This document shows positions 547 through 63,992 of a stretch of 64,000 nt of DNA, piece by piece. This DNA is from a virus. The stretch covers positions 86,437 to 150,436 of IMG/VR virus record IMGVR_UViG_3300029922_000014. One strand, given 5' to 3'. Position 1 is the first letter of the stretch; each line of letters begins with the position of its first letter. A program made the position numbers and the translations under genes. A model generated the notes under the pieces. The model was not told where the DNA came from. It did not search any database and saw only the letters and a list, made by a program, of their open reading frames with translations.

Positions 547-3500
547 GGGCTGACACCAACGGAAACCTGCGCTTCGTACTGCTGCGCTGCCCACGTCTGC
601 ACGTAGTCCGCTTCTTCGTCCACGCCATCACAGACACGACGAAACTTCAGCAGGTGCAGGTGATGATTGCGCAGGTGAAATGCAACGATTTCAACAACCT
701 GCCGATCCGTCAACGGAGGATTCCAGCTTCGCGGATAGATCGGAAAGAAGTCCAGGAGTGCAAGCTTCGCGGTCACAAAAATCACCGGGTCGACACCAAG
801 CAATACACCCACGACGCTGTGGACCATCTTACCGTAGTTCCGGTCAGGTGCATCGCAGGCGCGACGATATTCCATTACGGCGGCGTCGATGTTCAGACTG
901 TTTGCTGCTGCGACACGGCACGCTTCCAGGTGTGCGCGCAATTCGTCAGCATGGCGCTGCTGCAAAGCAATGAGCGCTTCAAGAGCATTCTTCATGGTCA
1001 GGGTCCTTCGTAGGGGTGGCCAAGGTCTTCGCAACATTCACGCGCCGACTTGGCTTCGTCATCGCGTTCTTTCTCCACGCGCTCATCGCGGATCCGTTCC
1101 GCTTCCTTATCGCCTTCAGCCGCGAGGCATCGGAGTTCAGCAATCTCGGCCGGCGTGAACGACACCGCGGTATTGTCCAAGTCGTGATCGGTGAAGTTCG
1201 ATCCTTCACTCTCAAAGACGTGGCGTATGTACCGGCGCAGAAGACCGCGATAATCGTCGATCGCTTCCGTAGTCGTTCCGCGGATGGCCAAACCGGGTTG
1301 ATCTGCGCTCTGACTGACGACGTCGACAGATTCCAAGTTTACCCGTTCGATCAGCGTGCCGGGAAGATTGCCCGCCGAAAACAGGTTCCATCCTTTCATG
1401 CCGTAAACGTAGATGTCTCCGCCTTCGCGCCGGCTGTCGCCCAGCTTCGGGCCGCTGACGTACACAGGATCGTCGAGGGTCCATCCTTCGCTCCAATCGC
1501 GGTGACCGCGACAGGACGGACTCTTTTGCGCATGCTCGGAACGGCATTCACCCAGAAGCATGGCGCCGGTCTGTCCATCCATCTCCGGATGCGGATGGGT
1601 GATGGTGTCGAACACGGTGCAACAAACGGGACAGCGGGCGGTGGTCTGATAGGTCATTTTATTTTTTCGTCTTTGATGTCCTGCTGAACTTCGCCATCAT
1701 CGCTTCGCGCTCTTCGCGTCGCGCTTTCACGTTTGGGTGCTCACCAGCGGGAATCGTCGCGACTGGAACCGGAACCCAAAGCGGCTCTGATCCGTCGGAG
1801 GTCGCCTCGGCCATTTGTAGTTCGTCCGTGCTCTTGACGGAATAAAAACCGTGATCGCCGCCAGGACCGATGACGGTGTGGTCGTTGAACCGCGCGCTGA
1901 CGCGTTCCCAGGTCTGTTTGCGCAGAATGCGGAGCATGAGGGTCATGGCATACCGTGATCAGTTTGCGTGTGCTTTTTGAGTTCTTCCACGGTGGCGCAA
2001 CCCCAACCGCACCCTGAACAAATATAGGGATACGGCAGAGTGAAGGAACATTTGATGAACTCGAAGAAATGCCTGCCGTCAGCATCGAACTTGAGCACAG
2101 CACAATCGGGAATGTCGGCCGGTAGTACGGCGCCACATTCCGTGCGCAGTTGTCCTGCCGTCATGCCTCCCATTGTGCTTGGGAGTGTGTGCAGCGTAAT
2201 CGTCGCGGTCATGGACTTCGCGGTCATGGACTTCGCGGTCATGGACTTCGCGTCTGCTTTGTTTCCAGCAGATTCATTTACCGTCACGTGAAAGTCTTCA
2301 AGTCTGTTCATGGCGTTATGCGCTTATTCTCGCGCTATGCCATAAAGTCAATCCCCCAACAATTGACACGATGTCAATCGGCGTCGGTGCCCAGGAGAGA
2401 ACGAACTTGGGCGTACCCTTCCGCATGCTGTTGCTGACCCTTGATCACCGCAGAACGAAACAGCGGATCATATTCGATGTCGAACCAGTAGTGCTGCGAC
2501 TCGCGAACTATTGAAGAAAGGACCGCAGCGTCTTTCTGAAGTTCGATGACGGCCTGAAGGCGACGCGTAGTCATGATTGTACGGCGATTCGCAACGACAG
2601 GCAGACCCAAAGAAGCGGTTGATGGCGCAGTACTAACTCACAGAGCCTGCTGCATTTGCCCAGCGCCCGCAAGAGTGCCGTCGACAGCCGGTGCGTTGCC
2701 GCATTCAGCCCCGGCACCAGCGCCCTCAACCGAAATATTTGTGCGTCGTAGAAGCTCATCGGTCAGACGTCGCGACGGACGTAAACGGCGGACGGTTCGG
2801 TCAACCCGTCAGCAACCACACCGACGAATTGTAGTGGTCGCCCAGGCTCATCTTCCGGAACAACGCCACCGTCGATGCAGCGATAGATCCCAAACGTCAA
2901 ACTGGAAACGCTGGCATTCCGCGAATGCGCAGTCATCAGCACAACACTGCGGCGGTCGCAGTGCACAACGCCGAGAAACGTTATGTCACTCGGAAAGGTG
3001 TGCTCGACGTAATCGCCATAACCGACGTTGACGTTGATGGTGTCGATGCGCCGCAGCAGGTTTGTAGTCATGGCGCATCGTCCAACGGCAAACCCAACGC
3101 ATGCCGCTCAGCCCGGTTGAGTTTGGCCAGCCCGGACTTCTTGAGTTCAGCGGTGCGCTGCTTGTTGTCGACATCGACCGAAACCGGCTCCTGCTGCGCC
3201 ACGATGTACCATTCGGTGCGGGAATCTCCGCCCTCACGCGAAAGCGGATATTCGACCGGCACAGCATACACATTTTCGATGATGCCGTTCTGGTCCTGCT
3301 GCCCTGCAAAACCAGATTCGGCTTGTCCGGACGCTTCAATCTGCGCGCGGTGAATCGTCGAGTAGTAGCCGATCAACTTGCCGCAAACGCTGTTGCCGTC
3401 GGTGTCATGGCTGCGGTAGGAAACGCGATGGATCAAACGAACATAGCTCATGGGTCAGCCTTTCAGCAGGTCTTTGACGGTGGGGTCTTTCAGCTTTGCC

Positions 3501-4857
3501 AGAATGCGCGCAGCTTTCTTGTCGATCGTCGCTTTGGTCTTCTTGAGGTGTGCACTACATCCACCGGCGTCGCACGGATCGTGCTTGGTCAGATAGGCAG
3601 TGGCGGCGGCGTCCTGTGCGGCGAAGTGGGCGCGGTGTTCACGCATGTCCGGCATCGCCAATCGCTCCGCCACTTCGGCAGCAGACACTTCGATGAACAT
3701 GTCGGTGTAGTCGCGTGTCAGTCCGCGGATGGCCGGCGTGTCGTGGCCCAGCACCTTGTCCCAGACCTTGCCGCGGTTGTTCCATTCTCGCAGCGTCATG
3801 CCTTGCGGCAGGTCGGTGTTGTCCCAGTACGACCACTCCCTGACCAGCGGTGAACTGGTGAAGCTCGCGGACAGGTCCTTGTGCTCGCAGAAGACGAGCG
3901 CCGGTGTGTAGTCGTACGGCCCGGGAAAGATGGTGATGGCCAGTTCAAAGTCGAACGCGGGATTCCTGAGCCCGGTCCGCTTGATGTCGCGCGCCTGATC
4001 CTCAAGGAGGTTGCGCGCGCTTTGCAGAACGTTGGGCTTCTTCTCATGCAGAAGCGGAACGATGCACGCGGCCAGGGTGTCGATGCGCCGTTTCTTGGCA
4101 GCAATCGCATAGGCTTTCTGGACGTTGTCGAGCAGGTCGACGATGGCGCGGATGTTGCCGGTGTCGATCCGGTAACCGTTGTAAATCTTGGCGCTCATAG
4201 GTCCTTCTTCAGTTTCTCCGCTTCAGCGCGGGCAGCTTTCCACACCATTCGCAGCATGAGGCTGGCGGCAGTGAGCGATGAAAGCGTAGTGATGATGTCA
4301 GCGATGAGCGTCGCCCAGAGAACGAGGTTTGGGTCGAGGTGTGGCATGTTATTTCTTTTCAGCGCACAGCTTCTTGGCAATCCAAGGAGCGCACATGCGC
4401 AGAGCGCCGATTTCCCAGGACAATCAATAGCGCCGGCCATTCAACAGCGAGGAAGTGCATTACCGGAGTCCGCTCAGGATGCGCACGCGCCATTGGCGTT
4501 GGTGCTGGGTGACGATGGTACAGGCGATCCAATGCTTCCGTAGTACGGTTGCGGATGTTTGGTGTTCACCCGGGTGAAGCAACCACGCCGGAGGCAGAGG
4601 AAAGCGGATCATGCGACGGCAGGAGGTGCAGGGTGAGGGATCCAAACAGAACCAGGACCGGGCTGCTTGGTCTCCCATATAGGTGGACCGTTAGGAATGC
4701 CCCACCCAGGGGAAAGCCCTAACGTCCCGTGGAAATAATACCGGAACTGCCACCAGCCGACAGCCGGATCCCACACCATGGCCATGTCTTCTGCCCGTGG
4801 TGTTTCTTCGGCGCAGGAACGCAGTTGCGCACGGAGTTTGTAGTCGGGCAGGCTCAT
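543..4857 (-). other. Cluster of tightly packed small hypothetical phage genes (e.g. 543-995, 998-1657, 1659-1946, 1943-2311, 2374-2574, 2763-3071, 3068-3451, 3455-4198, 4609-4857)
   Basis: Head-to-tail minus-strand ORFs with overlapping start/stop codons and no recognisable families. Confidence 0.65.
2204..2252. repeat. 15-bp in-frame tandem repeat x3 (encodes AKSMT)
   Basis: cgcggtcatggactt repeated three times inside ORF 1943-2311. Confidence 0.9.
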
Positions 4858-5228
4858 GACCGCGTGACCTTATACGGACGATTGACGGTGGATTTGGAGG
4901 TGCGTTGAAACAGGCGTTCAAACAAACCATCGCCTCCTTCAGGGATGGCCACCCCCAGGACATACACCTCGCGAATGATCAGCAGGTCCTGACCTTCCGC
5001 TTTGACGTCGTTGCCCTCGTATTGCTTGAAGTAGACGTAGTCGCCCACCTGCACTTCGACGGGGATGCGGACGCCGCGCTTGTTGCGCAGGCCGGGACCG
5101 ACGGCGATCACGGTGCCTTCGAGGGTGAGCGCATGGAGGTTATCCGGCGCCAGGATGCGGCCGATGGTGATGACGTCGCGGGGCTTGGCGCGGCGGATGG
5201 CGAGGTTGTCGTCGATGAGAGTCAGCAT
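4854..5228 (-). CDS. groES: Co-chaperonin GroES/Cpn10
   Basis: EGTVIAVGPG...IPVEVQVGDYVYFKQYEGNDVK.EGQDLLIIRE..VLGV; AAGGA RBS before ATG 5228. Confidence 0.9.
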   Translation of the reverse strand: MLTLIDDNLAIRRAKPRDVITIGRILAPDNLHALTLEGTVIAVGPGLRNKRGVRIPVEVQVGDYVYFKQYEGNDVKAEGQDLLIIREVYVLGVAIPEGGDGLFERLFQRTSKSTVNRPYKVTRS

Positions 5229-5374
5229 GGGAGTCCTTCGTTGAGGCTGAGGCAGGTTGAACGATGGGATCACCCGCGGGATGGGCGGCAGCGGATCACC
5301 AGATCGGTGAAATAAAACGTCACGGCTCAGAAGAGTAGCCATGAATTACTTTCTGCGCTTCGTGAAGGCAGAGG

Positions 5375-5845
5375 TCAGCATGGAAGTCCTTCACAGGGAA
5401 TGTTGTGTTCTTTCATCAGTGCGCAGATCAATTCAAAGGCAGCACGGTCGCAGCAACCTGGACGGATGATGTCCCGATAGCGACTGGAACGCTCGAAGTG
5501 TCCGATCTCGGTAGTGGTATAGAACGAACCGCCACACGGCCACCAGCGCACAGGAGATGTCGATGGCAGCATGGATGAGTTGTACGCATCCCACGGAACT
5601 TCGTTCTCGTCTTGGAATGACAAGTCATCATCGTTTGCGCTGCGTGCCCAGGTGAACAATTGATCCGGAAAGGTGCTGGCGTGGTGCGGTAGTGCGGCAA
5701 TGCACTCGTCGAAGTCCGGGCGATCATTCAGAATCGCAGCGGTGCAGGCGTCCATGAATGAATCACGGAAGTGCTCACCGCGATGTTTGCCGCAGTCGAA
5801 GTATTGTTTCCGCTTCGCGTCGATGATGTAGTAGAAGACGCCCAT
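5375..5845 (-). CDS. Hypothetical protein flanked by 18-bp direct repeats
   Basis: 156-aa ORF between two copies of ttactttctgcgcttcgt (5346-5363, 5849-5866). Confidence 0.65.
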   Translation of the reverse strand: MGVFYYIIDAKRKQYFDCGKHRGEHFRDSFMDACTAAILNDRPDFDECIAALPHHASTFPDQLFTWARSANDDDLSFQDENEVPWDAYNSSMLPSTSPVRWWPCGGSFYTTTEIGHFERSSRYRDIIRPGCCDRAAFELICALMKEHNIPCEGLPC

Positions 5846-5848
5846 GGG

Positions 5849-6334
5849 TTACTTTCTGCGCTTCGTAAAAGTGGAATTGTTCCAATTGTCGGTGTACAGG
5901 AGCAGGCCGCCATTGCGACCGCAGCGACTCCGCATGCGGTCTTCTGCGCTGCACAGGTCATGCAAAAAGGTCCTGCGCTGTGGGCTTTCGCTGTCTAACC
6001 ACAGCGCAATCACATTCCGGCCGAGCAACACGCGTTCGTCGATGTCAGTCAGAAAGGTGACTTCCAGACCATAGCAGGACGCTTCAAACCGATGCGTTAC
6101 GCCGCGATGCGCATGGATTCCGTAGGCGGTCAGCGCTGTGATCATCGCCTCCACATATCGGGCAGGGACGACCACGCATGCATGCTGTCCGGATATCATG
6201 GTGGCGGCGGTGTGCTTGATGGACTTCATCAAGAGCGGAATCGCCACCGCGATTTTATCTGCGGGCAGGTTGACGAAGGGAAGATCGAAGTTGTAGCCGT
6301 CGACGATCCGCTGATCTTCGGATGAAAGCGTCAT
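5849..6334 (-). CDS. Hypothetical protein
   Basis: ORF collinear with neighbours. Confidence 0.6.
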   Translation of the reverse strand: MTLSSEDQRIVDGYNFDLPFVNLPADKIAVAIPLLMKSIKHTAATMISGQHACVVVPARYVEAMITALTAYGIHAHRGVTHRFEASCYGLEVTFLTDIDERVLLGRNVIALWLDSESPQRRTFLHDLCSAEDRMRSRCGRNGGLLLYTDNWNNSTFTKRRK

Positions 6335-6336
6335 GG

Positions 6337-6915
6337 CTAAAGCTCCCACGCGTCATACATGCGCTCTGCCTCGAACCAGTCCGCCTCAGCAAACCCGTCG
6401 ACGCGTCCACGCTTCTCGTACAGGCCATAGGCGATCACTGCGATTTGTGCGTGTCGGTAGCGCGCGTACTGGTGATGAGCACCGCGCCGCGTCGCCTCTT
6501 CGGCTACGTAGTCGACGGCGCGCTTCTCCATCGCTGCAAGAATGCCCTGACGCTCTTCGGCGCTCAGGGCAGGTGCCGGGGCTTCCATTTCATCCAGCCC
6601 CGTAGTGGCCTCTTCCTCGTCTTCGTCGCGCGCAAGGATCTCCGGCACCTTGGCGAACTCCGCCAGCAGGATGGCCATCACTTCGTCGACGCTCATCCAC
6701 CCATGCGACGGGTCGTGCCCATCAGCGTGATGGACCATCTGCTTCTTCGGCCAGACAGGGTCGTCTCCCGGACGCACGACCTGCAACGACCAGTCCCCAT
6801 GCCGCGCACGGAAATAGAACGGGAAGCCGTGCATGGTGCCACTGGCTTGCGCGGGACAGGCGCCGCCAATGTCGGTGATGACAAGGCCGGCGGGGAGAGT
6901 TTCGAGACTGATCAT
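6337..6915 (-). CDS. Protein with C-terminal DUF2934-like domain
   Basis: RHAQIAVIAYGLYEKRGRVDGFAEADWFEAE matches the I..RAY..YE.RG...G....DW..AE pattern. Confidence 0.65.
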   Translation of the reverse strand: MISLETLPAGLVITDIGGACPAQASGTMHGFPFYFRARHGDWSLQVVRPGDDPVWPKKQMVHHADGHDPSHGWMSVDEVMAILLAEFAKVPEILARDEDEEEATTGLDEMEAPAPALSAEERQGILAAMEKRAVDYVAEEATRRGAHHQYARYRHAQIAVIAYGLYEKRGRVDGFAEADWFEAERMYDAWEL

Positions 6916-7222
6916 CGTAGTGCCTTCTTGAGTTTGTTGCGGGTCTTGCGGTACGCCTTCTTGTCGATCGGCTGCTTGCCGGTGCCCTTTCGGTAAAAGC
7001 CGGATCGGCGCAGGTCATCTTCCTTCGCCGCCTGCACGTTCATGTCCACACCGTTCATCCAGGTGATGAAGTGGGCGTTGGTGGTTTGGCGAAAGTGGCC
7101 GCCCTTGGCATGCAAAGCCTCCGCCTCATCCGCGAATGCCATCGGCACGGGGTAACCGTAGTAGGACGGAACGGGATCGACGGTCTCTTGCATGACACTT
7201 CCTCGGATTGACACGATGTCAG

Positions 7223-7531
7223 TTAGCGATTCTCGACTTGCTCAGGCAGCGCTTCGATCTCGGCGGGAAAGAAGCGGATCTCCTGGAACCGCGGCGTGGC
7301 TTGCGGTCCGTTGTCGATGCGACAGATAAACACGTAACCGGAATCGGCCAGTTCCGACTTCATGATCGTCGCTTGCGCGTGGCTGGACTTGATGACTACG
7401 ACCTGCCCGACGGTAAATACGTGGCGGTTCCGTATCAGCACGATGGCCGGAATAATCATTCCGGCGATGATTGCGAGGATGCTGATGACGATCAGCAGTT
7501 CGATGATGGTGAAACCTTTGATCGTTTTCAC
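7223..7531 (-). CDS. Prepilin-type N-terminal cleavage/methylation domain protein
   Basis: MKTIKG|FTIIELLIVISILAIIAGMIIP class III signal peptide (G|F...E5 plus hydrophobic helix). Confidence 0.85.
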   Translation of the reverse strand: MKTIKGFTIIELLIVISILAIIAGMIIPAIVLIRNRHVFTVGQVVVIKSSHAQATIMKSELADSGYVFICRIDNGPQATPRFQEIRFFPAEIEALPEQVENR

Positions 7532-8722
7532 GGGTGCAGCCCTTGGGTGTTGAGCGCTTTGATGCGCGCTTCTTTTTCAAAGCGCTGCTTCGTTTCGATG
7601 TCGCGATAGTTCCAGCGCGGCGCGATGGTGCCATCCGGCCGCAGCCGAAACTCATCCACTGACCACCACGTCAGCGAACCGACGACGGCCCAGCGTTCGT
7701 GTGCCCAGCGCATGCTGTCACCGACGAGGTCAACATAGGTGATGATGAAGCCGCGGTGGCGCGGGAGCGGAACGTAGTTGGGCGAGAGGAAGATGGATGC
7801 TGGCGGATCGGGACGGCGGTCTTTGATCAGCAGACCTTCAGCGATCCAGCGCCAGCCCAGTTCGGTCAGGTGCTTCGGCGCTTGGCCCTCCCAGCGTAGT
7901 CCTTCCGGGCTGTTCCACAGCCAGTCCCAGGCTTCGCGGTCATCCGTGGCAACCGCGTCGATGAGCATGGCGCCCATGTCCTGCGCGCTGTGCCGGTAAC
8001 GGTCGCAACTGAACTCGAACACTTCGCCTCGGTCGAGGTCTGCGAGACTGCGAGCGTCGGTCATTGGAGCTTCCCGTCGACGACATGCGCGCAGACGTGC
8101 GTCTCGTACGAGGGGATGTATGCCGGGCAGGTTGGGCAACGAACCACCGGGGTGATGCGGATGGCGCCGGTGAACCCAAGAGGAGGGTTGTCGATGAGGG
8201 CATGAGCCTCCTTATGGCTTACCGCCATGTCCCACAACCCTTGGCCTTTAATCCAAGCCACTTCGGTGGTGTTGCGAACAAGCCCCTCAACGCGGTACAT
8301 CTCTTCGCGCTTGGGCTCCGTAGTGGCTTCCATACGTGCCACCGCAGCCAGCCCTGCGTCCAGTTCTGGCTGGGTCGGGCGGCCGAGCGTGTGCAGGACC
8401 TTGCGGATGATGTCGGCGTCGGTCATGACGCAAACTCCCCGCGCCACGCTTCGTCGCGGTCAGTGTATGGATCCGGTTCAACGCTGATGATGCGGCAGCC
8501 ACAGAAGCGCATGGGCTTTCCATCCACAATCGCTTCGTAGTCGAACTTGTCAGCGTCAGGAGCAGCTGCCAGTACGGCAGCAAGCTGTCGGCGCCATTGT
8601 TCTAACAACGCAGACACGCTGGTATCAATGTGCTGTTCAATCATATCATTTCTCGCGTAGTGCACGATATGGACCGGAACGAACTGTCAACGACCAGTGA
8701 AAGAACTTCGCCCGCTGCATGT

Positions 8723-8928
8723 TGTTTCCCGCGTCATGCGACGACATGGACAGGATTCCTGCGCGTGGATGTACATAGCGCACTATGCGTTATTTCTCCC
8801 CTGGACAATATTCCTGTTTCCCGCGTCATGCGACGACATGGACAGGATTCCTGCGCGCGTGTTTTCATAGCGCATGACGCGACATTCTGCACCTGGATAT
8901 AATTCCTATTTACCGCGCTATGCGGTAA
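8723..8928. repeat. Intergenic ~92-bp tandem duplication carrying five Box B palindromes
   Basis: tgtttcccgcgtcatgcgacgacatggacaggattcctgcgcg at 8723 and 8815; Box B at 8729, 8778, 8821, 8870, 8913. Confidence 0.85.
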
Positions 8929-10049
8929 TGGCGAGCACGAAGAGGGAAGGCTTAACCGATATCCAGGTGCGTCCGTAGTCGTCACCTGATTGACATCGTG
9001 TCAGTTGCCTGCATGCCCGAGAGTGCCGTCAGCCGCAGGCGGAGCCCAGTGACAGAACCCACAAATCTTGTTTCCGTCATCCAGCTTCGCGGCGACTGGC
9101 CAACCCCCCATCGCTTTGATGGCACTGTTCAGTAGTCCGAGAGCAGACAGGGAGTCGTTGCCGGTTCCGCTGATCAGTTCGGGATCGGAGCCCAGCACGG
9201 TGCCGATGGTAACGCGGTTGCGGACCACGGCACCAAAGCCGTCAGGATCGAGGGGGAGGAGGCGATTGAAGAGGTCGATCACCGGCTGCGAGATGCCCTT
9301 GGCGGTGCGATCGGTGAGGTCTTTGTCTTCGTGCATGGGATGTCCTTCAGGATTGATTCGGCAATAGATTGAGCGACGTGGGCAACGTAGTGTGCGTCCT
9401 GATGCTGGAAGATGTAGTCCGCGAAGTCTTTGAGTTCATCGGATGGGGTCGAAGCCGGAAGCCAGTTCATCACCTGTTCGACGCGGTAGCCTTCGACCGT
9501 GTTCCAGGCGTCGAGGAGCGCTTGGGCCTCTTTGCGGCTGTGGACGTTGTAGGGCTGGTGGGTTTGTTCGACGGCCTTGAGATAGTCGTCGCGGGTGATG
9601 GTCATGGTGTCCTACCTTTGGCGTTCTTGTGCTTGACGCAGTTCCACCATCCAACCGACTTGCAGCGCCGACAGTCGTCAGGCGGAAGGATCTTGCGGCA
9701 GGCGGTGGCGTACTTCTCCGCTTCCTTTTGCGCCTTCGCCCGATCGGGGCGGGGCTTGGCCTTGTGGATGGTGCTTCCTGTCAGTTGCTTGGGCATCTTC
9801 GCATTCCAGACCTTGACCAGGACGGTGTCCCGGCGCTTGGTCAGTCTGCGGATGAGCTTGGTCAGTTGATGGGCCTTCTTGGCTTGCGCCTGCCATGCTT
9901 CGTAGTCGCAGGGGCGCACCCGGGTCATGGCAGAGAGTTGCCGGGCGATGGTCCCACGAATGGTGTGCATGCGGGCATGAATGCCCTTCAGGTCTGCATT
10001 GGCTGAGTCGATCTGCTGCTTCAAGACGGACGGGGTGAGGTTCACGGGG

Positions 10050-10349
10050 TCACGCCTTGCCGTTGCAGGTCTTGCACGGGCGTTGGTGTGGCTCCAGGCG
10101 GTATTGAAATGGGTCAATGCCCGTTCCGATACAGTCCTTGCACACGCCGGCCAGGGCTGGCTTTCCAGTCTCGGCCTCAACAGCCTCTTGATGAGACTTG
10201 AGCACTGGGGTGTTGTCAGCGGTCAGGCGGCGGCCTCGGCCGAGGCAAGCGTCACAGCGGGTCATACTTCCATGCCCGGTGTCGATGTACGCTTTGCCTT
10301 GGCAGGCGGTGCACTTCGCTTTGTAGTCGATGGTGTTGCCGGCCAGCAT
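10050..10349 (-). CDS. DnaJ-type CxxCxGxG zinc-finger protein
   Basis: CTACQGKA, CDACLGRG, CKDCIGTG, CKTCNGKA. Confidence 0.7.
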   Translation of the reverse strand: MLAGNTIDYKAKCTACQGKAYIDTGHGSMTRCDACLGRGRRLTADNTPVLKSHQEAVEAETGKPALAGVCKDCIGTGIDPFQYRLEPHQRPCKTCNGKA

Positions 10350-10750
10350 ATCCCCGGCGATGAGCATGAGCGCCAACAATTGCTGATCAGTCAGGCGGTC
10401 AAAGTGCGGGGCGTCATGGGATTGTTCATGCGTTGGCCTTGAGGAGGTTGTCCATGTCGGCCAGGAAGTTGGCTTCCGTGATGTAGCCGTAGAGTGGTTT
10501 GGCGCCTGGGGTAACGATGGCGGCGCCTTTCATCTCTTCCTGCGTGCCCCAGATAAGATCCCCTCCGAATGTTTCGATCAGGATGATCGGTTCTTTGCCG
10601 CCGGTGATCAGGAGAATGGAATGGGCGTGGGCTCTGATCGACTTGAACAGGATCTCCTGAAGGTCGGGCAGGTCGCTGAGCGAAGCAGAGGCGGCTTCGA
10701 GTTCTTCAAAGGGAGGGAGCGTCACGTCAGGTCATCCAATTGACACGGTG

Positions 10751-11140
10751 TCAGTCCGTGTAGCAGGCATGATGGGCGGTTCCGGGTTGCCGGTCCTCGT
10801 TGTGAGGCTCCACAGAGGCGCTGGAAGGCTGTTGTACGGACTTTCCTGTCTTCTTGGCCACGCGGGGAGGGTCTGACTGTTTCATAGCCTTTGCGGGGCT
10901 TGCAGCAGGTTCTTTGGAATCAGCCGAAACGGCATAAGGGGCGGGCTTGTTGATGGGCATCCAGGCAGTTATTGACCGCGCAAGCTTGCAAACGATACGA
11001 GGACCGCCCACGGTGAGGAAGAGCGGGTGTAAAGCATGGAACGTCGCCCACTCCACACACCCGTTACGCGTGATCCAGCACTCCTGCCCATCGTCAGGCA
11101 GCCGTTCCGCAATCGGGATCCAGAGTTCGGTGGTGCTCAT
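10751..11140 (-). CDS. DUF551-like phage protein
   Basis: WIPIAERLPDDGQECWI ... ITAWMPINKP. Confidence 0.7.
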   Translation of the reverse strand: MSTTELWIPIAERLPDDGQECWITRNGCVEWATFHALHPLFLTVGGPRIVCKLARSITAWMPINKPAPYAVSADSKEPAASPAKAMKQSDPPRVAKKTGKSVQQPSSASVEPHNEDRQPGTAHHACYTD

Positions 11141-11223
11141 GGCTGTGAGGAAGAGCGTACCAGATCGAATGGCGCGTCAACCAGTATTTTCCGCATCATG
11201 CCGGAAGTATGTTCAGAATCCAA

Positions 11224-11390
11224 AGTCGGAATCAGGCACGGCGCTGTTGTCCTAAGTTCACGTATTCACCGTGCAAATAGGTTCCTGCTTCACAGACGGT
11301 AGTTTCGTCCCGGTCTTACGACCAGGGCCAGAGCTTCCATCTCCACAGGCGTTTATTCCCGCGCAACTCGCGGTATGGATATTTTTTGCG
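11224..11390 (-). ncRNA. Putative TnpB omega-RNA scaffold plus 3' guide
   Basis: Overlaps the tnpB 3' end (aacgcctgtggaga...gtgaagcaggaa...ggacaacag), the usual location. Boundaries are inferred. Confidence 0.55.
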
Positions 11391-12451
11391 GCATTCAGAT
11401 CACGGTCGAGCGTGAAGCCACATGCAGTACAGGAAAAGACCCGCTCTGCGAGCGGAAGGGAATCTTTCTTGTGACCACAGCTTGAACAGGTCTTTGACGA
11501 AGGAAACCAGCGGTCGACGACAAACACCGATTGCGCTTTGTATTCCAGTTGACGTCGAATCTCACTGAATCCCACGTCATTCAAGGCGCGTGAAAGATGG
11601 CGGTTTGCCATCATGCCTTTCACGTTGAGGTCTTCGAGACCGACAGAACCATACTGCTTGGCTATCGCCGTAGTGGTCTTGTGCTGCCAGTCTTTTCTGA
11701 TTTGAGCTATCCGCCAATGCTGACGACTGAGACGAGCAACGGCTTTCTTCCGGTTGCTGGATCCTTTGACTTTGCGAGAGACGAAACGAGAGAGACGCTT
11801 CAAACGTTCGAGAGCAGACTTGAGCGGTTTGGGAGACTGAAAGGTAGTGCCGTCGGAGAGAACCAGAGCAGTCTTCAATCCGAGGTCGATGCCGACAGCG
11901 GGCTTTGACACGATGTCAGTTGGCGGATCGGGAAGTTCGACTTGAACGGAAAGCCACCAGCGTTGACCGACAAAAGACAAAACAGCGGAGAGTGGTTTGC
12001 CGTCGAAGCGGAGTTCTTCGTGGGTATCAACCCAACCAATATTCGGTAGTTTAACAGCTTTACCGGCGAACGAAAATGTTCCAGGTCCGTTGTCGAGACG
12101 TGCTGATTGCTTGGATTTATGTTTGCTCTTGAAGTCGGGCGGGGACATCTTTGGTCCCTTGCGCTTGCCTGAGCAGGAGTCGAAAAAGTTTTGGTAGGCG
12201 GTGCCGAGGTTGATGATCGCCTGCTGAACAACGCGCTTTGGCACATCCAACATCCAAGGGAACTCTTCACGCTTGATCGTATTCAAACTCTTCCGCAACG
12301 ATCCGTCGTTCGGCTTGTACCCAGCGGCAAACTGAGCACGCCAGTGACATAATGCCCAGTTAAAGGCAAAGCGCGCCGCTCCGACGCACTGCCGGAAGAA
12401 TGCTTCCTGCTTTCGCGTGGGGGCAAGCTTGATGATGTGGGCGCGGATCAC
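11258..12451 (-). mobile_element. tnpB: TnpB RNA-guided endonuclease, solo element with no TnpA in the window
   Basis: N-term HIIKLAPTRKQEAFF..CVGAARFAFN; RuvC-I GIDLG; RuvC-II LEDL; CSSC/CTAC zinc finger; RuvC-III DRDLNAAKNI. Confidence 0.95.
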
Positions 12452-12489
12452 TGCACACACAATAACAAAAAACACAGGCGTGGCCAGTA

Positions 12490-12540
12490 TCAGGTATTTC
12501 CTGGCGGATTGATCGGATCAAGTGGTATGGGGAGCTTCGG
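12490..12540. repeat. Diverged copy of the 3' end of the LamG gene (partner at 15972-16022)
   Basis: 38-bp identical core ggcggattgatcggatcaagtggtatggggagcttcgg. Confidence 0.9.
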
Positions 12541-13253
12541 CGTCCCATCCGTAGTGGTCCTGGCCCCGGATGATCTTCCATCCGCGTTCACGTGCATAGG
12601 CGGACTTGAAGCGGCGCGCGGCGACGCGGGTAAAGAAACTGCCACCGACGCAGTGGGCTGCCTGGATTCGGAGCGGCTTGGCCTTGGGGTCTTTGACGTC
12701 CTGGTGGACGGTGTAGTAGCCGTCGCCTGACACTTGCGGCTTCTGGTCGAGGTCGGCAGTCACCCTGCGGACGTGCAGGCTGGTCGATTCCTTCTTGTCT
12801 TCCTTCGGGTCGGTGTTGTGAACGATCCAGCGGTATGGCGCGGGGTAAGTCATTGGTCAATGAGTCCAGAGAGGCGGATGCCTGATTATCAGAACAGGTC
12901 GGTTTGAGGAACAGCGTCGTCGTCTGACCCCTCCACCTCCACAGGTTCAGGTGCACGGACCGCTTGCATGGCTTCGTAGGCGTTGGCGGGTCTATTCTGT
13001 TTTCTGATCTCGTCGCGCTTGGCGCTGACTTGCGCCAGGACCGCGGCCGGCAGGCGTTCGAGCAGGATGCGTTTGTAGTAGATACTCACGAGCGCCTTGG
13101 ACTGCTTCTCGCTCCACTCTTCGACGTTCCCAGTTCCGAGTGAACAGAGATTGGCGATAAGGTCCGACTCGAATGGGGTGAGCTTGGCGAAGTTGTCAGG
13201 CGCGGTGAGGGAATGGAGCATTCCTACGGACTGGGCGGGGGTCAGGCGCATGT

Positions 13254-13607
13254 TCAATCCTTAACCGTGATGGTCATGTGCCGTCGGCCCCACTGCACAG
13301 CTTCGGCGTGGGTTTTGAATCTGAGGTCGATGTGAACGATTCCGCGCTTGGCATCCTTGCGCATGGCGCCGCCGGTATCATCGACCTTTGCCCAATTGCC
13401 GTTGTTGTAACCGGTGACTTTGATCAGGGTTCCGTAGGGCAGGATGGTCGGGGCTGCGGCGATGCCGGTGGGATGATCGTCGGTATCGACATCGGTTGAG
13501 GTGATGCCGGAGAAGTCTGAACCACAGTAGCCGGTGACGATCGCCTGGAGTTCGACGGCTGGGGCGGTGGCGCACAGGACGAGCAGAGCGACGAGCTTGA
13601 TTGACAC
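13254..13607 (-). CDS. 3D-domain (MltA-like) secreted cell-wall enzyme
   Basis: Signal peptide; VTGYC, GIAAAPTILPYGT, VDDTGGA, HIDLRF, AVQWGRR; GTG start lies within Box A. Confidence 0.85.
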   Translation of the reverse strand: MSIKLVALLVLCATAPAVELQAIVTGYCGSDFSGITSTDVDTDDHPTGIAAAPTILPYGTLIKVTGYNNGNWAKVDDTGGAMRKDAKRGIVHIDLRFKTHAEAVQWGRRHMTITVKD

Positions 13608-15091: not shown

Positions 15092-15198
15092 GTGCTTTTC
15101 TAGGGCTGGTGCATGGCGCGGCGGGCGATGGCGAGGCTGCGCAGGCAGATGGCGTCGGTGATCTGAGCGTTCATGGCGATGGTCATGGGAGACTCCTT

Positions 15199-15284
15199 GG
15201 TCCTTTGGACCGCTGGTTGGTTGTTGTACCCGCATCATGGTGCGGACTGACATCGTGTCAATTGCTGTTTTCCGCGTTATGCGG
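15199..15284 (-). promoter_or_regulatory. Promoter cassette: Box B, -35/Box A, -10, Box C, RBS
   Basis: Box C 15199, -10 CATGAT 15234-15239, Box A 15248, Box B 15272. Confidence 0.8.
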
Positions 15285-53257: not shown

Positions 53258-53405
53258 GATGTTTTCCTTGCAGCCCGGGTACAGGGTTTGGTTTGGTCCC
53301 GGTTGGTTACTGCGCCGTCAAGGTTACGAAGGGTTTTTCCCCATTGCAAGCTGTTTTTTCCGCGTCATGCGGGAAGTTCCGTGTGGGAACTGACACGATG
53401 TCAGT

Positions 53406-55877: not shown

Positions 55878-56786
55878 TCACCACGTGATGCCGAGGTCGA
55901 TTGAAGGGGTTGCCATCAGACGCGCCGAACGCGGAGACAGATCCTTCAACAGGTTTGCGAACTGTTTGTCGTCCCAGGTCTTAAACCCGATGAGCGCAGG
56001 AAACATGGGATTATATCCAGAAGCAACAGCAACGGCAGCACGAAGACGTGCAAGGTGCGCCACGTGTCCGATGGTCGGGTAGGTCTGACGCAGGCGTTCG
56101 AGGAGCCGGTTCGCCGCCACGTTCCGCGGTCCGAAAATGGCTTGGTATTCATCGGAATGGTCAGCATAGACCGCCAGTGGTTGACCATCACCATCGGTCA
56201 CGGAGCGACACAGCAGCCACAGCCGCTCCTCTTCCTCCTCCGCCATGCGATTGACGAGTCGGTCGAGTTCGGTGTTGCCGAGGTTGCGCCCGTCGGGATA
56301 GGCGAAGGTCCGCTGGCAAGTCAGCAGGTAGGACTGCCAGCGTCCGATCGCCGCCTTCTCCACGAGCACGATGGTCTGGAAGTCCGAAAACCTCCCCACT
56401 TCCTGGGATTGGATGTACGTGCGCCTTGCGTGCATCTGCACGGCGATCCACGCCACCGGTGACGCCCCGTATTTCGTGCACATGCGGGAGACCGTGGCGA
56501 GGGCATCATGTTCGGTGACCGGTTCGCAGCGGTCGTATCCGAAAATCTCCCGATGGAGTTGGTGATAGACCTGATGCAAATCGTCGTTGTCGGACGGCCA
56601 GACGAAGACCTTGGCTTCCTGCTCTGCAAGCATTTCTGACAGGCTTTTTCGATTCGTCCAGGTCTCCTGGATTTTCGCACACAGCACCCGGGCATGACAA
56701 CGATCGCAGGCGTCTGGGGCGTTTCCAGAGCCGTAGCAGGCCGGACGTCCGCGAGGGACGGGTGCTGGTTGGCGGTCAATTGACAT
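55878..56786 (-). CDS. Hypothetical protein with N-terminal Cys cluster; ATG lies within Box A
   Basis: PACYG...CDRCHARVLC; start ATG 56786 coupled to the helicase stop. Confidence 0.6.
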   Translation of the reverse strand: MSIDRQPAPVPRGRPACYGSGNAPDACDRCHARVLCAKIQETWTNRKSLSEMLAEQEAKVFVWPSDNDDLHQVYHQLHREIFGYDRCEPVTEHDALATVSRMCTKYGASPVAWIAVQMHARRTYIQSQEVGRFSDFQTIVLVEKAAIGRWQSYLLTCQRTFAYPDGRNLGNTELDRLVNRMAEEEEERLWLLCRSVTDGDGQPLAVYADHSDEYQAIFGPRNVAANRLLERLRQTYPTIGHVAHLARLRAAVAVASGYNPMFPALIGFKTWDDKQFANLLKDLSPRSARLMATPSIDLGITW

Positions 56787-56790
56787 CGTG

Positions 56791-58572
56791 TCAGTCCTTG
56801 CGGGAACGCGAACGACGGCGCCGGTTGTCATCATGAAGCTTTTGCATCGCATCCTCCCAACGCAGAAACGGCCACAGCAGCGAATCCCGATTCTCAGGGA
56901 CCGCGGGCCAAGCGTAGAGCGGAAACACCTCATACCCTTCGCCCTCATACACACGGACCCGATCCAGTCCGTGCTGTGTCAAGGTCTCGTGCGAGGTGGG
57001 GATGATGTCCACGACCCACACTTCGTTGTCGCCGTCTTTCTTGCGTCTCGTACCGCGGCCGACGCGTTGAATCGCGTTGGTGTTGACGCTGACGCCTTCG
57101 GCCATGACCAGTGCTTCGATGCCTTCAACATCAGAGCCTTCGTCCAGGACGTTGTTCGCGATCAAGCACTTCGCCTTGCGTTCGGTGAAAGCCTTCTTGG
57201 CAGCCTCGCGATCCTCCTGTTTCGTCGCACCCCAGATCGCCACGGTGCTGATGCCTTGCGCCTCGGCCATGTCCTTCAACCGCTTCCACTGCTCTTTCTT
57301 GCGGGTGAACACCACGGTGCGCTTGCCATGATCGGTCAGCCACGCCACCACCCGGATCACCGCCCGGTTGTGGTAGTCGTTCTCCACGATCCCGAGGCGG
57401 TATGCGTCGGCATACGGCAGGTCGATCTCCTTGGTGAAGGAACGCTTCCCGATGAAGTATTCCTTCTGGCCTTTCGGAAGCGTCGGACCACTGACAGCGT
57501 CGGAAAGGATCGCAATGATCTTGGGCTTCGCCGCTGCACCGATTTCGATCAGTTCGTTCAGTTCAACGTTGCTGATGATGTCACCGGTAGCACCCATCAT
57601 GGTGGTGTCGTCGATCGCAGATTCTTTCAGAGGCGAACCACTGAACCCGAACCTGCGAATAGCTTTTGAGCGCAGACAAAACTCGGACCATGACTCCGAA
57701 CTGGCGTGATGTACTTCATCAAGAGCGAGAACTTGCCGCGTTTCCATCAATTGACGGATCACGGGATCGTACGGCACTTGTTCTATCCGCGTCCGCGTCA
57801 TTGGCTTGCCATCCGGACGTAGCACGGGTTTGCCGTTCGCCCCTTTGAGCGGTTCGCGAACCTTCTTCTCGCGGTCCTGAAATTGGATCAACGTCTGCGC
57901 GGTGACGATCGTGATGTCACCCATCTCCCGATTCTTGACACCATTTTTCTTCTGGCCGCCGCCGCAGATCCCGACGGTTGGCTCCGTTTCACTGATAAAG
58001 TATTTTGCGCAGCGCGCAGCAAACTGATGGACCAGATCAGCCTTGGGAACGACGACCAGTGTCTGCCATCCTAATTCCTCCCACAGGTACTTCGCAGCCA
58101 CGATGGCACATTCCGTTTTGCCGGCGCCTGTACTGGCCTTAACGATCCCACGTTGATTGGTCAGAATCGCCCGGATGGCATCCATCTGATCGGGGCGCAG
58201 GGTGATACCCGGCAGGTATTGATCCGTCAGCCGGGAAAGATCGACCTGATGGAAGTCCCCGAGTTCCTGCACGGTGACGGGCACAGCGCAGTTCGAGTAG
58301 TAACGCGTGACGCGGCTGACGAGTCCAGCAGGAAAGGTGAAGATACTCGGATCGCGACGGTCTTTACGATAAAAGCGGTGGAATCCATCCCAGCGCCCTT
58401 CCTTGAACGCCGGAGAAAAAAAGTGATTCGGGTGGATGATGCGGAGACATTCGTCGAGGTCAGCCTGGAGCGCACCACGGATTCGTGCGTATGCGCCATC
58501 AACAACGATGGAAATATCACTGCGAATTGCAGTAGTAGAATCCCGTACTTCGTTGCTATTTGCAGTATTCAT
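56791..58572 (-). CDS. SF2 DNA helicase (UvsW-like)
   Basis: WDG, LRPDQ, STGAGKT, DEVHH, SGSP, QRVGRGTR. Confidence 0.9.
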   Translation of the reverse strand: MNTANSNEVRDSTTAIRSDISIVVDGAYARIRGALQADLDECLRIIHPNHFFSPAFKEGRWDGFHRFYRKDRRDPSIFTFPAGLVSRVTRYYSNCAVPVTVQELGDFHQVDLSRLTDQYLPGITLRPDQMDAIRAILTNQRGIVKASTGAGKTECAIVAAKYLWEELGWQTLVVVPKADLVHQFAARCAKYFISETEPTVGICGGGQKKNGVKNREMGDITIVTAQTLIQFQDREKKVREPLKGANGKPVLRPDGKPMTRTRIEQVPYDPVIRQLMETRQVLALDEVHHASSESWSEFCLRSKAIRRFGFSGSPLKESAIDDTTMMGATGDIISNVELNELIEIGAAAKPKIIAILSDAVSGPTLPKGQKEYFIGKRSFTKEIDLPYADAYRLGIVENDYHNRAVIRVVAWLTDHGKRTVVFTRKKEQWKRLKDMAEAQGISTVAIWGATKQEDREAAKKAFTERKAKCLIANNVLDEGSDVEGIEALVMAEGVSVNTNAIQRVGRGTRRKKDGDNEVWVVDIIPTSHETLTQHGLDRVRVYEGEGYEVFPLYAWPAVPENRDSLLWPFLRWEDAMQKLHDDNRRRRSRSRKD

Positions 58573-59457: not shown

Positions 59458-59763
59458 AGACTACGGGCGGGAAACCGCCGGGGCAAGCTGGACTGACACG
59501 ATGTCAGTTGTCAGGCGCGGTCCTCGCGCGCGCTGTCAGTGCCCGCTGTTCCGCATCCCACAAAGCCATTTGATGCACGATCATCTGTTCACAGTGATCT
59601 GCAATCGCCACGACGGTTTCTGGATCAGTGCTGCCCTCAAGCCGCTGAAGCGCATGCAGCAGACCGCAGGTGCAGATGTGACCAAGCGCATACACGTGGC
59701 AGTCCCCGTCGTGGGTTGGCCCAGTAGTCTTGCGATACCAGCGTGTGAGGTCGTCGATCAAGA

Positions 59764-60109: not shown

Positions 60110-60960
60110 AGTTCATAGATGGGTCATGCAATGACCCATCATGAAACGGCGAATCAAAGTCAAGGGGCGACTACGGTTTCCGATTGACATCGTGTCAATC
60201 CACGGGGAGGGGGCCGGCGGCATCGGGGTGGGGAGACTTCGAGCTTCTGGCTTCGGTCTTCACACTTCGACATGCGAGCTTCGAGTGTGGTTTTCGAGAG
60301 GGCTTTTGCTTTGGGTTTCGACGGCTTTTGTCGGTTGTATTCGGCCGTTTCTCAAAAGTATTTTGTATTCGCAGCACATGCGCCGAACGGAGTGAGTGCG
60401 CTTTTTCTTTGTCTTTTTTTATAGGAAGAGAGGGAAGGATGAGGGAGGTATACGTAGTATACCCCCCGAAGACTGAAGAGGGGATGCAAGGGGAGAGGGG
60501 GAGGAACCTGCCCTTTTTTTCTATTTCTTTTGTTCGCCGTCGTCGACCCTACCGGTCAATCGTCGAACCGATCATCGAATCAATCGCCGCCCGAACCGAC
60601 TACCGCTTCCCCGCCGCACCCCGAAACCGATGATCACCCCGGCGTCGAACCGGTCATCGAATCCGCTGAACCGACACCGAACACCAGCGAACGGCCAAAA
60701 CAGTTGAGGCTCTGAATAGGCTGTTTTTAGCCTCTGGAATTGCTGATGGTTCTCGTGGGTACCCCCCGGTGTCTAAAGTCGATTAAACAGCCTCCCAGGC
60801 TTAGTTTCAGGCCACTCTGGAAGCGCCAGTCTGGCTCAAAAATACCAAAAACCGTCAATCTTCTGCTAACCCCATTAGCAGTTGGCGATTGACATCGTGT
60901 TAATCCAAAACAGAACCCCCATCCACAGAGCACCATGGATGGGGGTCAGGAGCTTCAAAA
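60110..60960. other. ~850-bp non-coding region, candidate replication origin or genome end
   Basis: No credible ORF; polypyrimidine/polypurine tracts; 21-bp repeats at 60561 and 60643; Box A at 60185 and variant at 60890. Confidence 0.45.
60907..60947 (-). terminator. Intrinsic terminator after RecQ
   Basis: acccccatcca...tggatgggggt followed by tctgtttt. Confidence 0.7.
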
Positions 60961-62723: not shown

Positions 62724-63039
62724 GACACAGGGTCCTTTGGCTTGTCGCCGTTGGTTGGTTTGGGCTGAGAGTGTATATCCCGCGTCACGCGGACAATCGT
62801 TGTTTTGACGTCAGAAAACGATGCAGTCGCCGCGAAGGCAGCGCCAACCATACCAGGGACCATTGTACCGGCTCATGCGACGCTTACCGCAAGCGCAAAC
62901 TGCCCGCCGCCGTTCACCGTAGCGCGGCTGTTTGTACCTCCGCGGGTTGAAGACCTGGAAGCGGGGCATCCGGTCGACCATCTCTTCGTATTGGCGCAAA
63001 AGGCTGTTCGGGAAAACCGTGTTCATGATTGACGCCGTG

Positions 63040-63702
63040 TCAGTTCGGGGTGCTGAGGATGAGGGTCACGACGCGGTCATATCCCGCTTCGTTGAGGTGG
63101 ATGCCAGCCGGTTGGCTGTATTGCGGATCGCACCAGCCCGACGGCAGCACCACCGCTGGCCATAGGTTGAGCCACTGCGCGTTGCGCCCGTTGGCCACGT
63201 CTTGCAGTTGCGCCGTCAGGGTGCCAAAGTCCGCCGGTCCCAAGTTGTTTCCCGTCGCCCACGGATACTGAGGGGCGAGCGGCATCGGGGACAGGCAGAT
63301 GACCGTCGTTGCGCCCTTTGCGCGTACGGTGTCGATGAGTGTTCCATACTCGGCCATCGTCACATCGCGAGGCGTTCTGGTCTGAAGATCGTTGATTCCG
63401 CACCAAAGGTACACCGTCGGCGGGAGGCTGGGCTGCGCCTGCACGCGAGCAAGGACCATGGCGACGGTATCGCCTCCGACGCCAAGATTCTCTGCCCCTG
63501 GGAGCCACGTTTGCCACGCCCCCAGATAGACATAGCTGTCACCGATGACCGCCTTGGTCGTCGGGTTGGGAACCGAGTCATCGTGAGCGTCATAGGTCGT
63601 CGGGAACGCCGCTGCCCCGGGAGCGTGGTACGGTTCGTGATGGAGTCCACCGTATCCGCAGCCGGCGAGCATGATGATGGCGATGGTGAGGATGAAGCGC
63701 AT
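63040..63702 (-). CDS. SGNH/GDSL hydrolase lipoprotein
   Basis: Lipobox LAGC; GDSY, NLGVGGDT, GIND, GIHLNEAGY. Confidence 0.85.
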   Translation of the reverse strand: MRFILTIAIIMLAGCGYGGLHHEPYHAPGAAAFPTTYDAHDDSVPNPTTKAVIGDSYVYLGAWQTWLPGAENLGVGGDTVAMVLARVQAQPSLPPTVYLWCGINDLQTRTPRDVTMAEYGTLIDTVRAKGATTVICLSPMPLAPQYPWATGNNLGPADFGTLTAQLQDVANGRNAQWLNLWPAVVLPSGWCDPQYSQPAGIHLNEAGYDRVVTLILSTPN

Positions 63703-63913
63703 GGCGTGTTCCTTTGGAACGTCGAGTGGAAGGGGGCTGAAGGGCAGGATCAACGGGCGGTGGCCATTTCCTCTGCACACGCTTCGACGAAGGTCAGGAA
63801 CTCGGGATCGTTCAGGGCGACGAAGGCGACTTCGTATTGCGCGCAGAACTGACGGACCAGGAAACCGATTTCCGCGTTGGTATGGGTCTTGAAGAGGTTC
63901 ATGGCTGACTCCG

Positions 63914-63992
63914 GGTCCGTGGGACCATTGGGGTATGGCGGCCAGCGTACCCGGATTGACACGATGTCAATCCTATTTCCTGCATGACGCGG
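63914..63992 (-). promoter_or_regulatory. Promoter cassette (B-A-C)
   Basis: Box C 63914, TACGCT 63944-63949, Box A 63957, Box B 63980. Confidence 0.8.

Follow-up and report, generated by a model that had tools for sequence, protein, structure and literature searches.

The ParB paralogue Noc of Bacillus subtilis, which has an N-terminal membrane-targeting helix and a role in cell division, binds a palindrome scattered over the chromosome in many copies and spreads, and the operator OB occurs 12 times on plasmid RK2. The stoperators of mycobacteriophage L5 are asymmetric 13-mers oriented with transcription and read by the immunity repressor (gp71) of this temperate phage. On RK2, the KorB clamp is loaded at OB, can slide as far as 1.5 kb and acts as a repressor at proximal as well as distal promoters (PMC11790492). 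In the Cluster O mycobacteriophages (Corndog and relatives) a 17-bp dyad repeat of 7-3-7 layout occurs more than 30 times; a dimeric reader was predicted for it and no function assigned. These phages are not obviously temperate, have neither integrase nor parAB and encode a protein with a ParB-like domain, which the authors considered unlikely to act in genome stability and did not name as the reader (PMC4351075, PMC6439249). According to a 2025 survey, ParB-CTPase proteins with a canonical helix-turn-helix (HTH) occur almost exclusively on plasmids and chromosomes (PMC12704722), and the ParB on which a phage thymine dioxygenase depends is without a DNA-binding domain (PMC13229309). In our literature search, no report connecting a phage ParB with a genome-wide palindrome array came up. 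Here we describe such an array, of a palindrome named Box A, together with a candidate ParB-like reader, in the uncultured phage of IMG/VR virus record IMGVR_UViG_3300029922_000014 (G000); the window is the whole stretch of 64,000 nucleotides (nt) analysed, positions 86,437 to 150,436, which forms the final 64 kb of the 150,436-bp record.

Box A is a 17-19-bp palindrome that carries one fixed asymmetric position and is hence imperfect. Its extended consensus in gene direction is G-A-Y-TGACA-(C-G-N or its complement)-TGTCA-R-T-C, and it is by a wide margin the most over-represented palindrome of G000, which has a GC content of 59% and a 127-bp terminal repeat at the record ends. Allowing up to two mismatches, the 17-mer AYTGACACGATGTCART is found at 27 distinct places in the window, giving 29 matches when both strands are counted, against a mean of 0.03 in shuffled windows, none of 100 shuffles reaching 29. 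Across the whole genome the 13-mer core occurs exactly 39 times and its reversed control not at all, while TGACA-N3-TGTCA occurs 51 times (0.09 in shuffles), or 50 after removal of the terminal-repeat duplicate. All told, the genome has about 55 copies of the palindrome. The central triplet holds a CpG in all 51 (CGA or TCG in 39, CGG or CCG in eight, CGC or GCG in three and CGT or ACG in one).

All 24 copies listed by the sequence-only reading that preceded this analysis were recovered at the same positions; it had overlooked copies with core starts at 36815, 60185 and 60890, and a further weak copy lies at 49345. Its division of the copies among three settings (overlapping -35 boxes, at gene junctions and inside coding sequence) holds, with the reassignment of the copy at 44181, which it had placed at a junction and which falls within the 434-aa (amino acid) RecA call, being a junction site only under the 391-aa start used in other contigs. 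A crude in-house gene caller placed 145 of 148 first-pass genes on the minus strand. Most copies outside the promoter-like cassettes are at junctions, where the TGA of the motif doubles as the upstream stop codon in seven cases and an ATG or GTG at the centre is the start codon of the next gene in three, while many copies terminate 5-50 nt ahead of the next start codon. Genes with an internal copy include a TnpB-like gene, a 1072-aa gene, SbcC, an SbcD-like gene and polA. The copies in the window and the gene of the candidate reader are as follows.

2362 to 2378, plus strand: Box A, exact, at a gene junction.
7207 to 7223, plus strand: Box A, exact, at a junction, 1 nt past the upstream stop and 15 nt ahead of the next ATG.
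8989 to 9005, minus strand: Box A, exact, at a junction, its TGA ending the gene at 9001-9336.
10739 to 10755, plus strand: Box A with a CGG centre, at a junction; the upstream gene stops at its TGA, and the next start lies 15 nt on.
11904 to 11920, plus strand: Box A within the TnpB-like gene (11258-12253), in frame as T-D-I-V-S-K.
13600 to 13616, plus strand: Box A, exact, containing the upstream stop (TGA) and the GTG start of the gene at 13254-13607.
15246 to 15262, minus strand: Box A in a promoter-like cassette, the sole one also flagged by the sigma-70 scan (16-nt spacer).
15658 to 15674, plus strand: Box A in a promoter-like cassette.
18573 to 18589, plus strand: Box A (one mismatch), about mid-way in the 1072-aa gene.
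21566 to 21582, plus strand: Box A in a promoter-like cassette upstream of the gene at 20549-21514.
25062 to 25078, minus strand: Box A in a promoter-like cassette.
26551 to 26567, plus strand: Box A in a promoter-like cassette.
27195 to 27211, plus strand: Box A in a promoter-like cassette.
30847 to 30863, minus strand: Box A, exact, with the large terminase gene on one side and the portal gene on the other.
35770 to 35786, minus strand: Box A variant (two mismatches) within the SbcC-like gene.
36813 to 36829, minus strand: Box A variant within the SbcD-like gene (T-D-T-L-S-F), one of the overlooked copies.
40639 to 40655, plus strand: Box A, CGG-centre variant in a promoter-like cassette, 1 nt past the stop of the 5'-3' exonuclease gene.
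41709 to 42899, minus strand: gene of the ParB/KorB/Noc-like protein, 396 aa, candidate reader of Box A (Pfam, PDB sequence matches, AF2/Foldseek, synteny).
42981 to 42997, minus strand: Box A in the promoter-like cassette of the ParB gene, its left arm forming the -35, 83 nt upstream of the ATG.
44179 to 44195, plus strand: Box A, exact, in the N-terminal part of the RecA-like open reading frame or at its alternative start.
49688 to 49704, minus strand: Box A, exact, in polA between the uracil-DNA glycosylase (UDG) and exonuclease domains (I-D-T-M-S-V).
53389 to 53405, plus strand: Box A, exact, at a junction, 2 nt past the upstream stop.
56779 to 56795, minus strand: Box A, exact, at a junction, its TGA ending the helicase gene at 56791-58572.
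59492 to 59508, plus strand: Box A, exact, intergenic, 42 nt ahead of the next start.
60183 to 60199, minus strand: Box A, exact, intergenic, overlooked before.
60888 to 60904, minus strand: Box A (one mismatch), intergenic, overlooked before.
63028 to 63044, minus strand: Box A variant (two mismatches) at a junction, with its TGA as the upstream stop.
63955 to 63971, plus strand: Box A in a promoter-like cassette that lies in the 127-bp terminal repeat; it is identical with the copy at genome position 84.

The array is real and under selection. Coding sequence makes up 82% of the genome but holds only 12 of the 50 copies (P = 9e-19), a strong enrichment outside genes, and all 12 of these exact-arm intragenic copies use a single reading frame, x-D-(I/T)-(V/L/M)-S-x. 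Seven of the 13 genes of at least 700 aa contain a copy. The copy in polA lies within a variable linker where the alignment to 26 homologues is free of gaps, indicating that it was made by substitutions and not by insertion. The gaps among the 50 copies have a coefficient of variation (CV) of 0.54 and a maximum of 6.4 kb, against 0.97 and 13.5 kb for random placement (P < 2e-4), and a null model in which 38 copies were placed solely at gene starts gives a CV of 1.01 (P < 1e-4). This even spacing points to a process that requires a site every few kilobases, whatever the gene content.

Positions +/-7 of the palindrome do not covary (Fisher odds ratio 0.30), the non-pairing C..A being the commonest pair (18 of 50), and in gene direction the centre reads TCG in 23 cases and CGA in 15. 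Because covariation is absent and the centre points both ways, Box A is best taken as a site for a dimer on duplex DNA rather than as a stem: the pattern fits two independently constrained half-sites with a symmetric dimeric reader, and a conserved stem fits it poorly.

The gene at 41709-42899 encodes a ParB-family HTH protein, as had been proposed from the sequence. Its product exceeds the Pfam cut-offs for ParB_N (PF02195; 54.5 bits, cut-off 26.3) and HTH_ParB (PF17762; 30.1 bits, cut-off 22.6), and PDB sequence matches to Caulobacter ParB (6t1f) and to Noc run through both domains. The AlphaFold2 (AF2) model, with a predicted local distance difference test score (pLDDT) of 76, takes a ParB/KorB/Noc fold, matching 6t1f (TMt 0.81, root-mean-square deviation 3.0), KorB (8qa9, TMt 0.76) and 7nfu (TMt 0.64) in Foldseek; the alignment with KorB has a low sequence identity of 19%. 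Across 11 orthologues there is little or no variation at the residues of box I (N73-P74-R75), box II (G116/R118/R119) and box III (E156-N157 and R162). The N-terminal tail is of low complexity and is Lys-rich in several relatives, the orthologue tails being rich in Lys, Ala and Pro, while the C-terminal domain (residues ~296-375, pLDDT ~86) is predicted to be helical and is conserved, belongs to no known family and is not spanned by any PDB match. The ParA-binding motif LG(R/K)GL is present in none of the 11 orthologues. Since parS, OB and Noc-binding site (NBS) sequences were all not found across the whole G000 genome at up to one mismatch, there is no rival canonical ParB site in G000.

About 13 Box A copies genome-wide lie within a long conserved promoter-like cassette, nine of them in the window (15248, 15660, 21568, 25064, 26553, 27197, 40641, 42983 and 63957). 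In gene direction this cassette consists of a short GC-rich palindrome (Box B), an A-tract and Box A with its left arm reading TTGACA, followed after 15 nt by a TAnnnT or CATGAT hexamer, a GGTCC-N3-GGACC hairpin (Box C) and a ribosome-binding site, so placed that Box A covers the -35 and most of the spacer. The copy ahead of the ParB gene overlaps the -35 in this way, in agreement with the sequence-only reading. Cassette copies always have T at position -7, as a -35 requires, and junction copies mostly C. A sigma-70 scan, which needs a spacer of 16-18 nt, flags a single cassette, the others having 15 nt, and because of this the cassettes are treated as candidate promoters whose role we infer from the conserved -35/-10 spacing alone. 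The 15-nt spacer separating -35 and -10 is unusual. Box B reads CCGCG-N3-5-CGCGG followed by AAAA and stands upstream of the -35 (minus strand, for example 42960-43040 and 21510-21620, the cassettes spanning 15199-63992 of the window), and Box C, with 11 copies genome-wide, lies in the leader just ahead of the ribosome-binding site. Box B also occurs with TTGACA and without a full Box A, for example at genome positions 66532 and 79508 and near window position 53391.

No relatives at the DNA level emerged when 8 kb were compared with 50,697 phage records by distant blastn, and single-protein IMG/VR searches with ParB and with polA gave none either, but protein-level and alignment-based searches did yield relatives. 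The fusion of UDG, exonuclease and PolA has about 500 homologues of 36-50% identity on contigs of up to 155 kb. Two full IMG/VR genomes (G003 and G004) were compared genome-wide, the others being shorter loci (L numbers). The gene order RecA, ParB_N protein, 5'-3' exonuclease is kept in every relative locus that spans the region, with a partial exception in L356, where a methyltransferase gene and a large gene separate ParB from the exonuclease. ParB belongs to the core genes of this clade of T4-like phages with genomes of roughly 150 kb. A relative with the array but without the ParB gene, which the sequence-only reading would have taken as evidence against ParB, did not turn up.

Palindromes were counted specifically in these relatives, as de novo k-mer counts were dominated by codon-bias repeats, and most of the relatives have an array of their own. 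G003 (156 kb, GC 67%) has 17 copies, none degenerate, of GYCCAGTGACA-CGC-TGTCACTGGAC, with 11-bp arms (CV 0.40, P < 2e-4), and G004 (124 kb, GC 53%) has 31 copies of TTTGACR-TTG-TGTCAAA (CV 0.57, P 0.001), both arrays being evenly spaced. Among the shorter loci, L255 has seven copies of TTGACA-N3-TGTCAA in 15.5 kb, L355 eight copies of GATTGACC-GCT-GGTCAATC (TGACC arms) in 23 kb, L358 15 copies of TTGACG-CGC-GGTCAA, L356 13 copies of TGACA-CAG-CGTCA and L262 six copies of GATTTACG-CAG-CGTAAAT (TTACG arms), while TTGACA-N3-TGTTAA occurs about eight times in L256 and once or twice in L359. The outer TTGAC...GTCAA is widely retained; the inner five bases vary among genomes and are uniform inside the best-sampled ones (G000, G003, G004, L355 and L358). 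A motif that is genome-specific and internally uniform fits the pattern expected of a co-evolving phage-encoded reader.

Several observations on these relatives stand apart. G003 has a second short motif, (G)TGTAGAC, 20-40 nt from several palindrome copies (for example near ~33, 25110, 39809, 57216 and 89455). G005 (L353/L364) has two tandem ParB paralogues (~8999-11149), with no repeated palindrome detectable in its 22-kb fragment. In the recognition helix, the residue before V/I-R/Q-R is K or R where both arms are TGACA and T, D or S where an inner arm base is altered, a weak lead drawn post hoc and uncorrected for phylogeny.

What singles out ParB is its distribution and the position of the palindrome beside its gene. 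ParB (32-35% identity) and an HU-like protein are the only DNA-binding candidates of G000 with homologues in both G003 and G004. In about nine of 11 genomes a palindrome copy stands 77-93 nt upstream of the ParB start, the distance being 83 nt in G000, 82 nt in L257, 87 nt in L355, 90 nt in L356, 77 nt in L357, 93 nt in L358, ~91 nt in L361 and ~85 nt in L359. L256 and G004 also have a copy near the ParB gene, and in G003 a copy adjoins its 3' end and the ParB promoter retains a half-site only. The upstream copy is again the -35 of a recognisable promoter in L359, L361 and L256/L367. The genes for polA, RecA, the exonuclease, DnaB, helicases and SSB each have an upstream copy in at most two of six loci. 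This arrangement resembles, as indirect evidence, ParB autoregulation or a parS kept beside parB.

These data favour, somewhat better than evenly, a reading in which the phage's own ParB-like clamp uses Box A as its operator and loading site. A dimer of the ParB/KorB/Noc-like protein (41709-42899), without a ParA partner, would bind Box A on double-stranded DNA. At the ~13 cassettes the site overlies both -35 and spacer, so that bound protein would keep RNA polymerase out and repress the promoters, including that of the ParB gene itself, giving autoregulation. The remaining 35-40 copies, no more than 6.4 kb apart and some of them in frame in long genes, would serve as loading sites from which the clamp could spread or slide chromosome-wide, perhaps in a CTP-dependent manner, as KorB does from distal OB. 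Candidate purposes of such coverage are temporal shut-off of transcription, compaction of replicating DNA and marking of phage DNA as self. It is possible, though on the whole doubtful, that a clade of ~150-kb lytic T4-like phages coats, organises or silences its own chromosome by means of a partner-less ParB clamp and a barcode-like array, marking its DNA as self; the variable centre would then allow the clamp of each phage to distinguish its own genome from those of co-infecting relatives and from the DNA of the host.

A number of points weigh against ParB as the reader. The box II sequence of the G000 protein is GHRR where most relatives have GERR, and the odd centre and 17-19-bp length of Box A are unlike known ParB-family sites. 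ParB might bind Box B or Box C of the cassettes rather than Box A. Another conserved regulator that always controls ParB would yield the same picture of upstream copies, and as ParB is a core gene, co-occurrence cannot separate it from the small terminase candidate, the HU-like protein or other conserved proteins. In the 18-23 kb sampled from the ParB-bearing L357, L364/G005, L365 and L366, repeated palindromes are few or absent, although these may be sparse arrays like that of G003. The IMG/VR scan for the exact motif gave single matches at chance level except in two small contigs and in G001 (IMGVR_UViG_3300036791_000517; 61,573 bp, 60% GC), which is unrelated to G000 at the protein level and has 18 copies of TGACA-N3-TGTCA, nearly all TTGACA-N3-TGTCAA and mostly immediately ahead of ribosome-binding sites, yet gave no ParB_N hit, so that arrays of this sort can have other readers.

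A partition or prophage role is the part of the earlier proposal that did not stand, ParB itself remaining the best candidate for the reader of Box A, strengthened by co-inheritance at clade level and by position. The suggested plasmid-prophage state or segregation function finds no support: Pfam sweeps of 174 proteins of up to 450 aa, 17 larger ones and ten window proteins detected no ParA, integrase or recombinase, and the ParA-binding motif is missing. Its gp23 capsid, gp20 portal, sheath, baseplate and prohead protease genes give G000 a T4-like structural gene set and, judged from its gene content, the phage looks lytic.

An unlikely alternative, the strongest of the rivals, is that ParB is merely one target of another dimeric DNA-binding protein of the phage, which might be a Cro-like XRE protein, a MerR protein, an HU-like protein, the putative small terminase or an unannotated core protein. 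G000 does encode such candidates: two HTH_3 (XRE) genes (genome 75005-75565 and 79957-80565), an HTH_30-like protein (genome 70831-72144, the sole sizeable plus-strand gene), a MerR protein (63384-63956), an HU-like protein and a WYL protein. Cro and CI classically use operators of this geometry, 17 bp with an odd centre; one Box A copy contains the start codon (ATG) of the 186-aa XRE gene; and G001 has its similar array with no ParB_N hit. However, the two XRE genes, the MerR and HTH_30-like genes and indeed the entire 62-87-kb accessory region have no homologue in G003 or G004, whose arrays keep the TGACA arms; we know of no HU or terminase protein that reads short strict palindromes; and the unannotated conserved proteins gave no hit to a DNA-binding family. 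It is very improbable that a host factor, either region 4 of the RNA polymerase sigma subunit at the TTGACA arms or a global regulator, reads a host site copied by the phages. The arms do include the -35 consensus TTGACA, the left arm is the -35 in ~13 cassettes, and the unrelated G001, of similar GC, has TTGACA-N3-TGTCAA. A host factor or the -35 consensus is nonetheless disfavoured because the inner bases are genome-specific yet uniform within genomes; the arms of relatives depart from the consensus (GTGACA, TGACC, TTACG, AGACA), their GC ranges from 52% to 67%, suggesting different hosts, and most Box A copies have no -10 at the correct distance. A scan of 185,579 species genomes gave single hits per 8-kb stretch among the matches listed, with ~280 hits estimated by chance, and no host lead.

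That Box A acts as an RNA hairpin in long one-strand transcripts, as a signal for processing, stability or translation upstream of ribosome-binding sites, is very improbable. With nearly all genes on one strand, transcription crosses every copy in one direction, a start codon follows many of the junction copies at 5-50 nt and the stem would have 5-8 bp and a loop of 3 nt; but the missing covariation at +/-7, with a non-pairing combination the commonest, argues against pairing, the loop would be UCG or CGA at random, the sequence itself is conserved beyond structure, the asymmetric arms of L256 and L356 disrupt pairing in one orientation and the evenly spaced copies in long genes have no obvious role in RNA. 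Least probable of all is a selfish or mobile short repeat, or a target of a nuclease, nickase or methyltransferase. The several HNH endonuclease genes, the Dam-like methyltransferase and the TnpB-like gene of G000, and the CpG always retained at the centre, would agree with it, whereas the origin of the polA copy by in-place substitution, the one coding-compatible frame of all 12 exact-arm intragenic copies, and the even spacing and deep-clade conservation, which favour selection on the phage over spread of a parasite, speak against it, as does a target of 17-25 bp, which exceeds ordinary methyltransferase sites. Chi-like, pac-like and nick-site roles were rejected because Box A is too long and too symmetric and no supporting gene is present, as was the 5mYOX-associated ParB activator (PMC13229309), a class without a DNA-binding domain, no Tet/JBP family having been found in G000.

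Other genes of the window and its surroundings add to this description of the phage. The portal gene (gp20 family; 27741-30803, minus strand) is interrupted by an intein with a LAGLIDADG-like domain. The TnpB-like gene (11258-12253, minus strand), with its in-frame Box A, combines OrfB_IS605 with a Cas12f1-like TNB domain. The polA gene (46465-50478, minus strand) is fused to a family-4 UDG and encodes 1337 aa, ~300 aa more than most relatives (919-1055 aa), the extra segment lying outside Pfam coverage. Accessory genes at window positions 1-16000 and 22000-26000 encode an ADP-ribosylglycohydrolase, GroES (Cpn10), a DnaJ-type zinc-finger protein, a pilin-like N_methyl protein and several HNH endonucleases. 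Upstream of the window, genome positions 62000-87000 form an accessory region with long intergenic gaps that holds the HTH_30-like, two XRE and MerR genes.

Phage-wide palindrome arrays have been in print since 2015, in Cluster O, without an assigned reader or function. If ParB does read Box A, such arrays would gain a reader and the biology of CTP clamps would reach lytic viruses, beyond plasmids and chromosomes. The clade would also provide natural pairs of protein and site of differing specificity (G000, G003, G004, L355 and L358) for studying how specificity changes in the ParB family. The even spacing, kept even in essential genes, implies a process that reaches every few kilobases of the viral chromosome.

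Compared with described systems, Box A and its candidate reader resemble KorB and OB of the IncP-1 plasmid RK2 in pairing a global regulator of ParB-CTPase fold and HTH (PMC11790492; the G000 model matches 8qa9 at TMt 0.76) with one palindrome present many times per replicon, some copies at core promoters and others kilobases off. KorB, however, has the ParA partner IncC and the clamp-locking co-repressors KorA and TrbA, while no ParA or ParA-binding motif was found in G000; OB is 13 bp long and Box A 17-19 bp; and G000 has ~55 evenly spaced copies, some in coding sequence, on the genome of a phage that looks lytic. Noc and NBS of Bacillus subtilis offer the likeness of a ParB paralogue without a ParA partner, Noc being among the best matches in sequence and fold, but the G000-clade orthologues, with their Lys/Ala/Pro-rich N-terminal tails, belong to viral genomes, and no NBS-like sequence was found in G000.

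The stoperators of L5, with which the sequence-only reading had drawn an analogy, share with Box A two dozen or more copies of an early-promoter operator at gene junctions and a -35 hexamer within the site. This analogy is unsupported, as Box A has symmetric arms, its centres point both ways (23:15), copies also lie inside genes, and no lysogeny genes, whether integrase or recombinase, were found in G000. The likeness to Cluster O extends to an inverted repeat with a 3-bp spacer spread genome-wide between genes, near starts and inside genes (for Box A, 50 exact-arm copies, 12 of them intragenic), with one central triplet that prevails and an orientation neutral relative to transcription. The Cluster O sequence, TGTTCGG-N3-CCGAACA, is unrelated to Box A and belongs to 70-kb siphoviruses of Mycobacterium (PMC4351075), and few of its sites are at promoters, whereas about a quarter of those in G000 overlap a -35.

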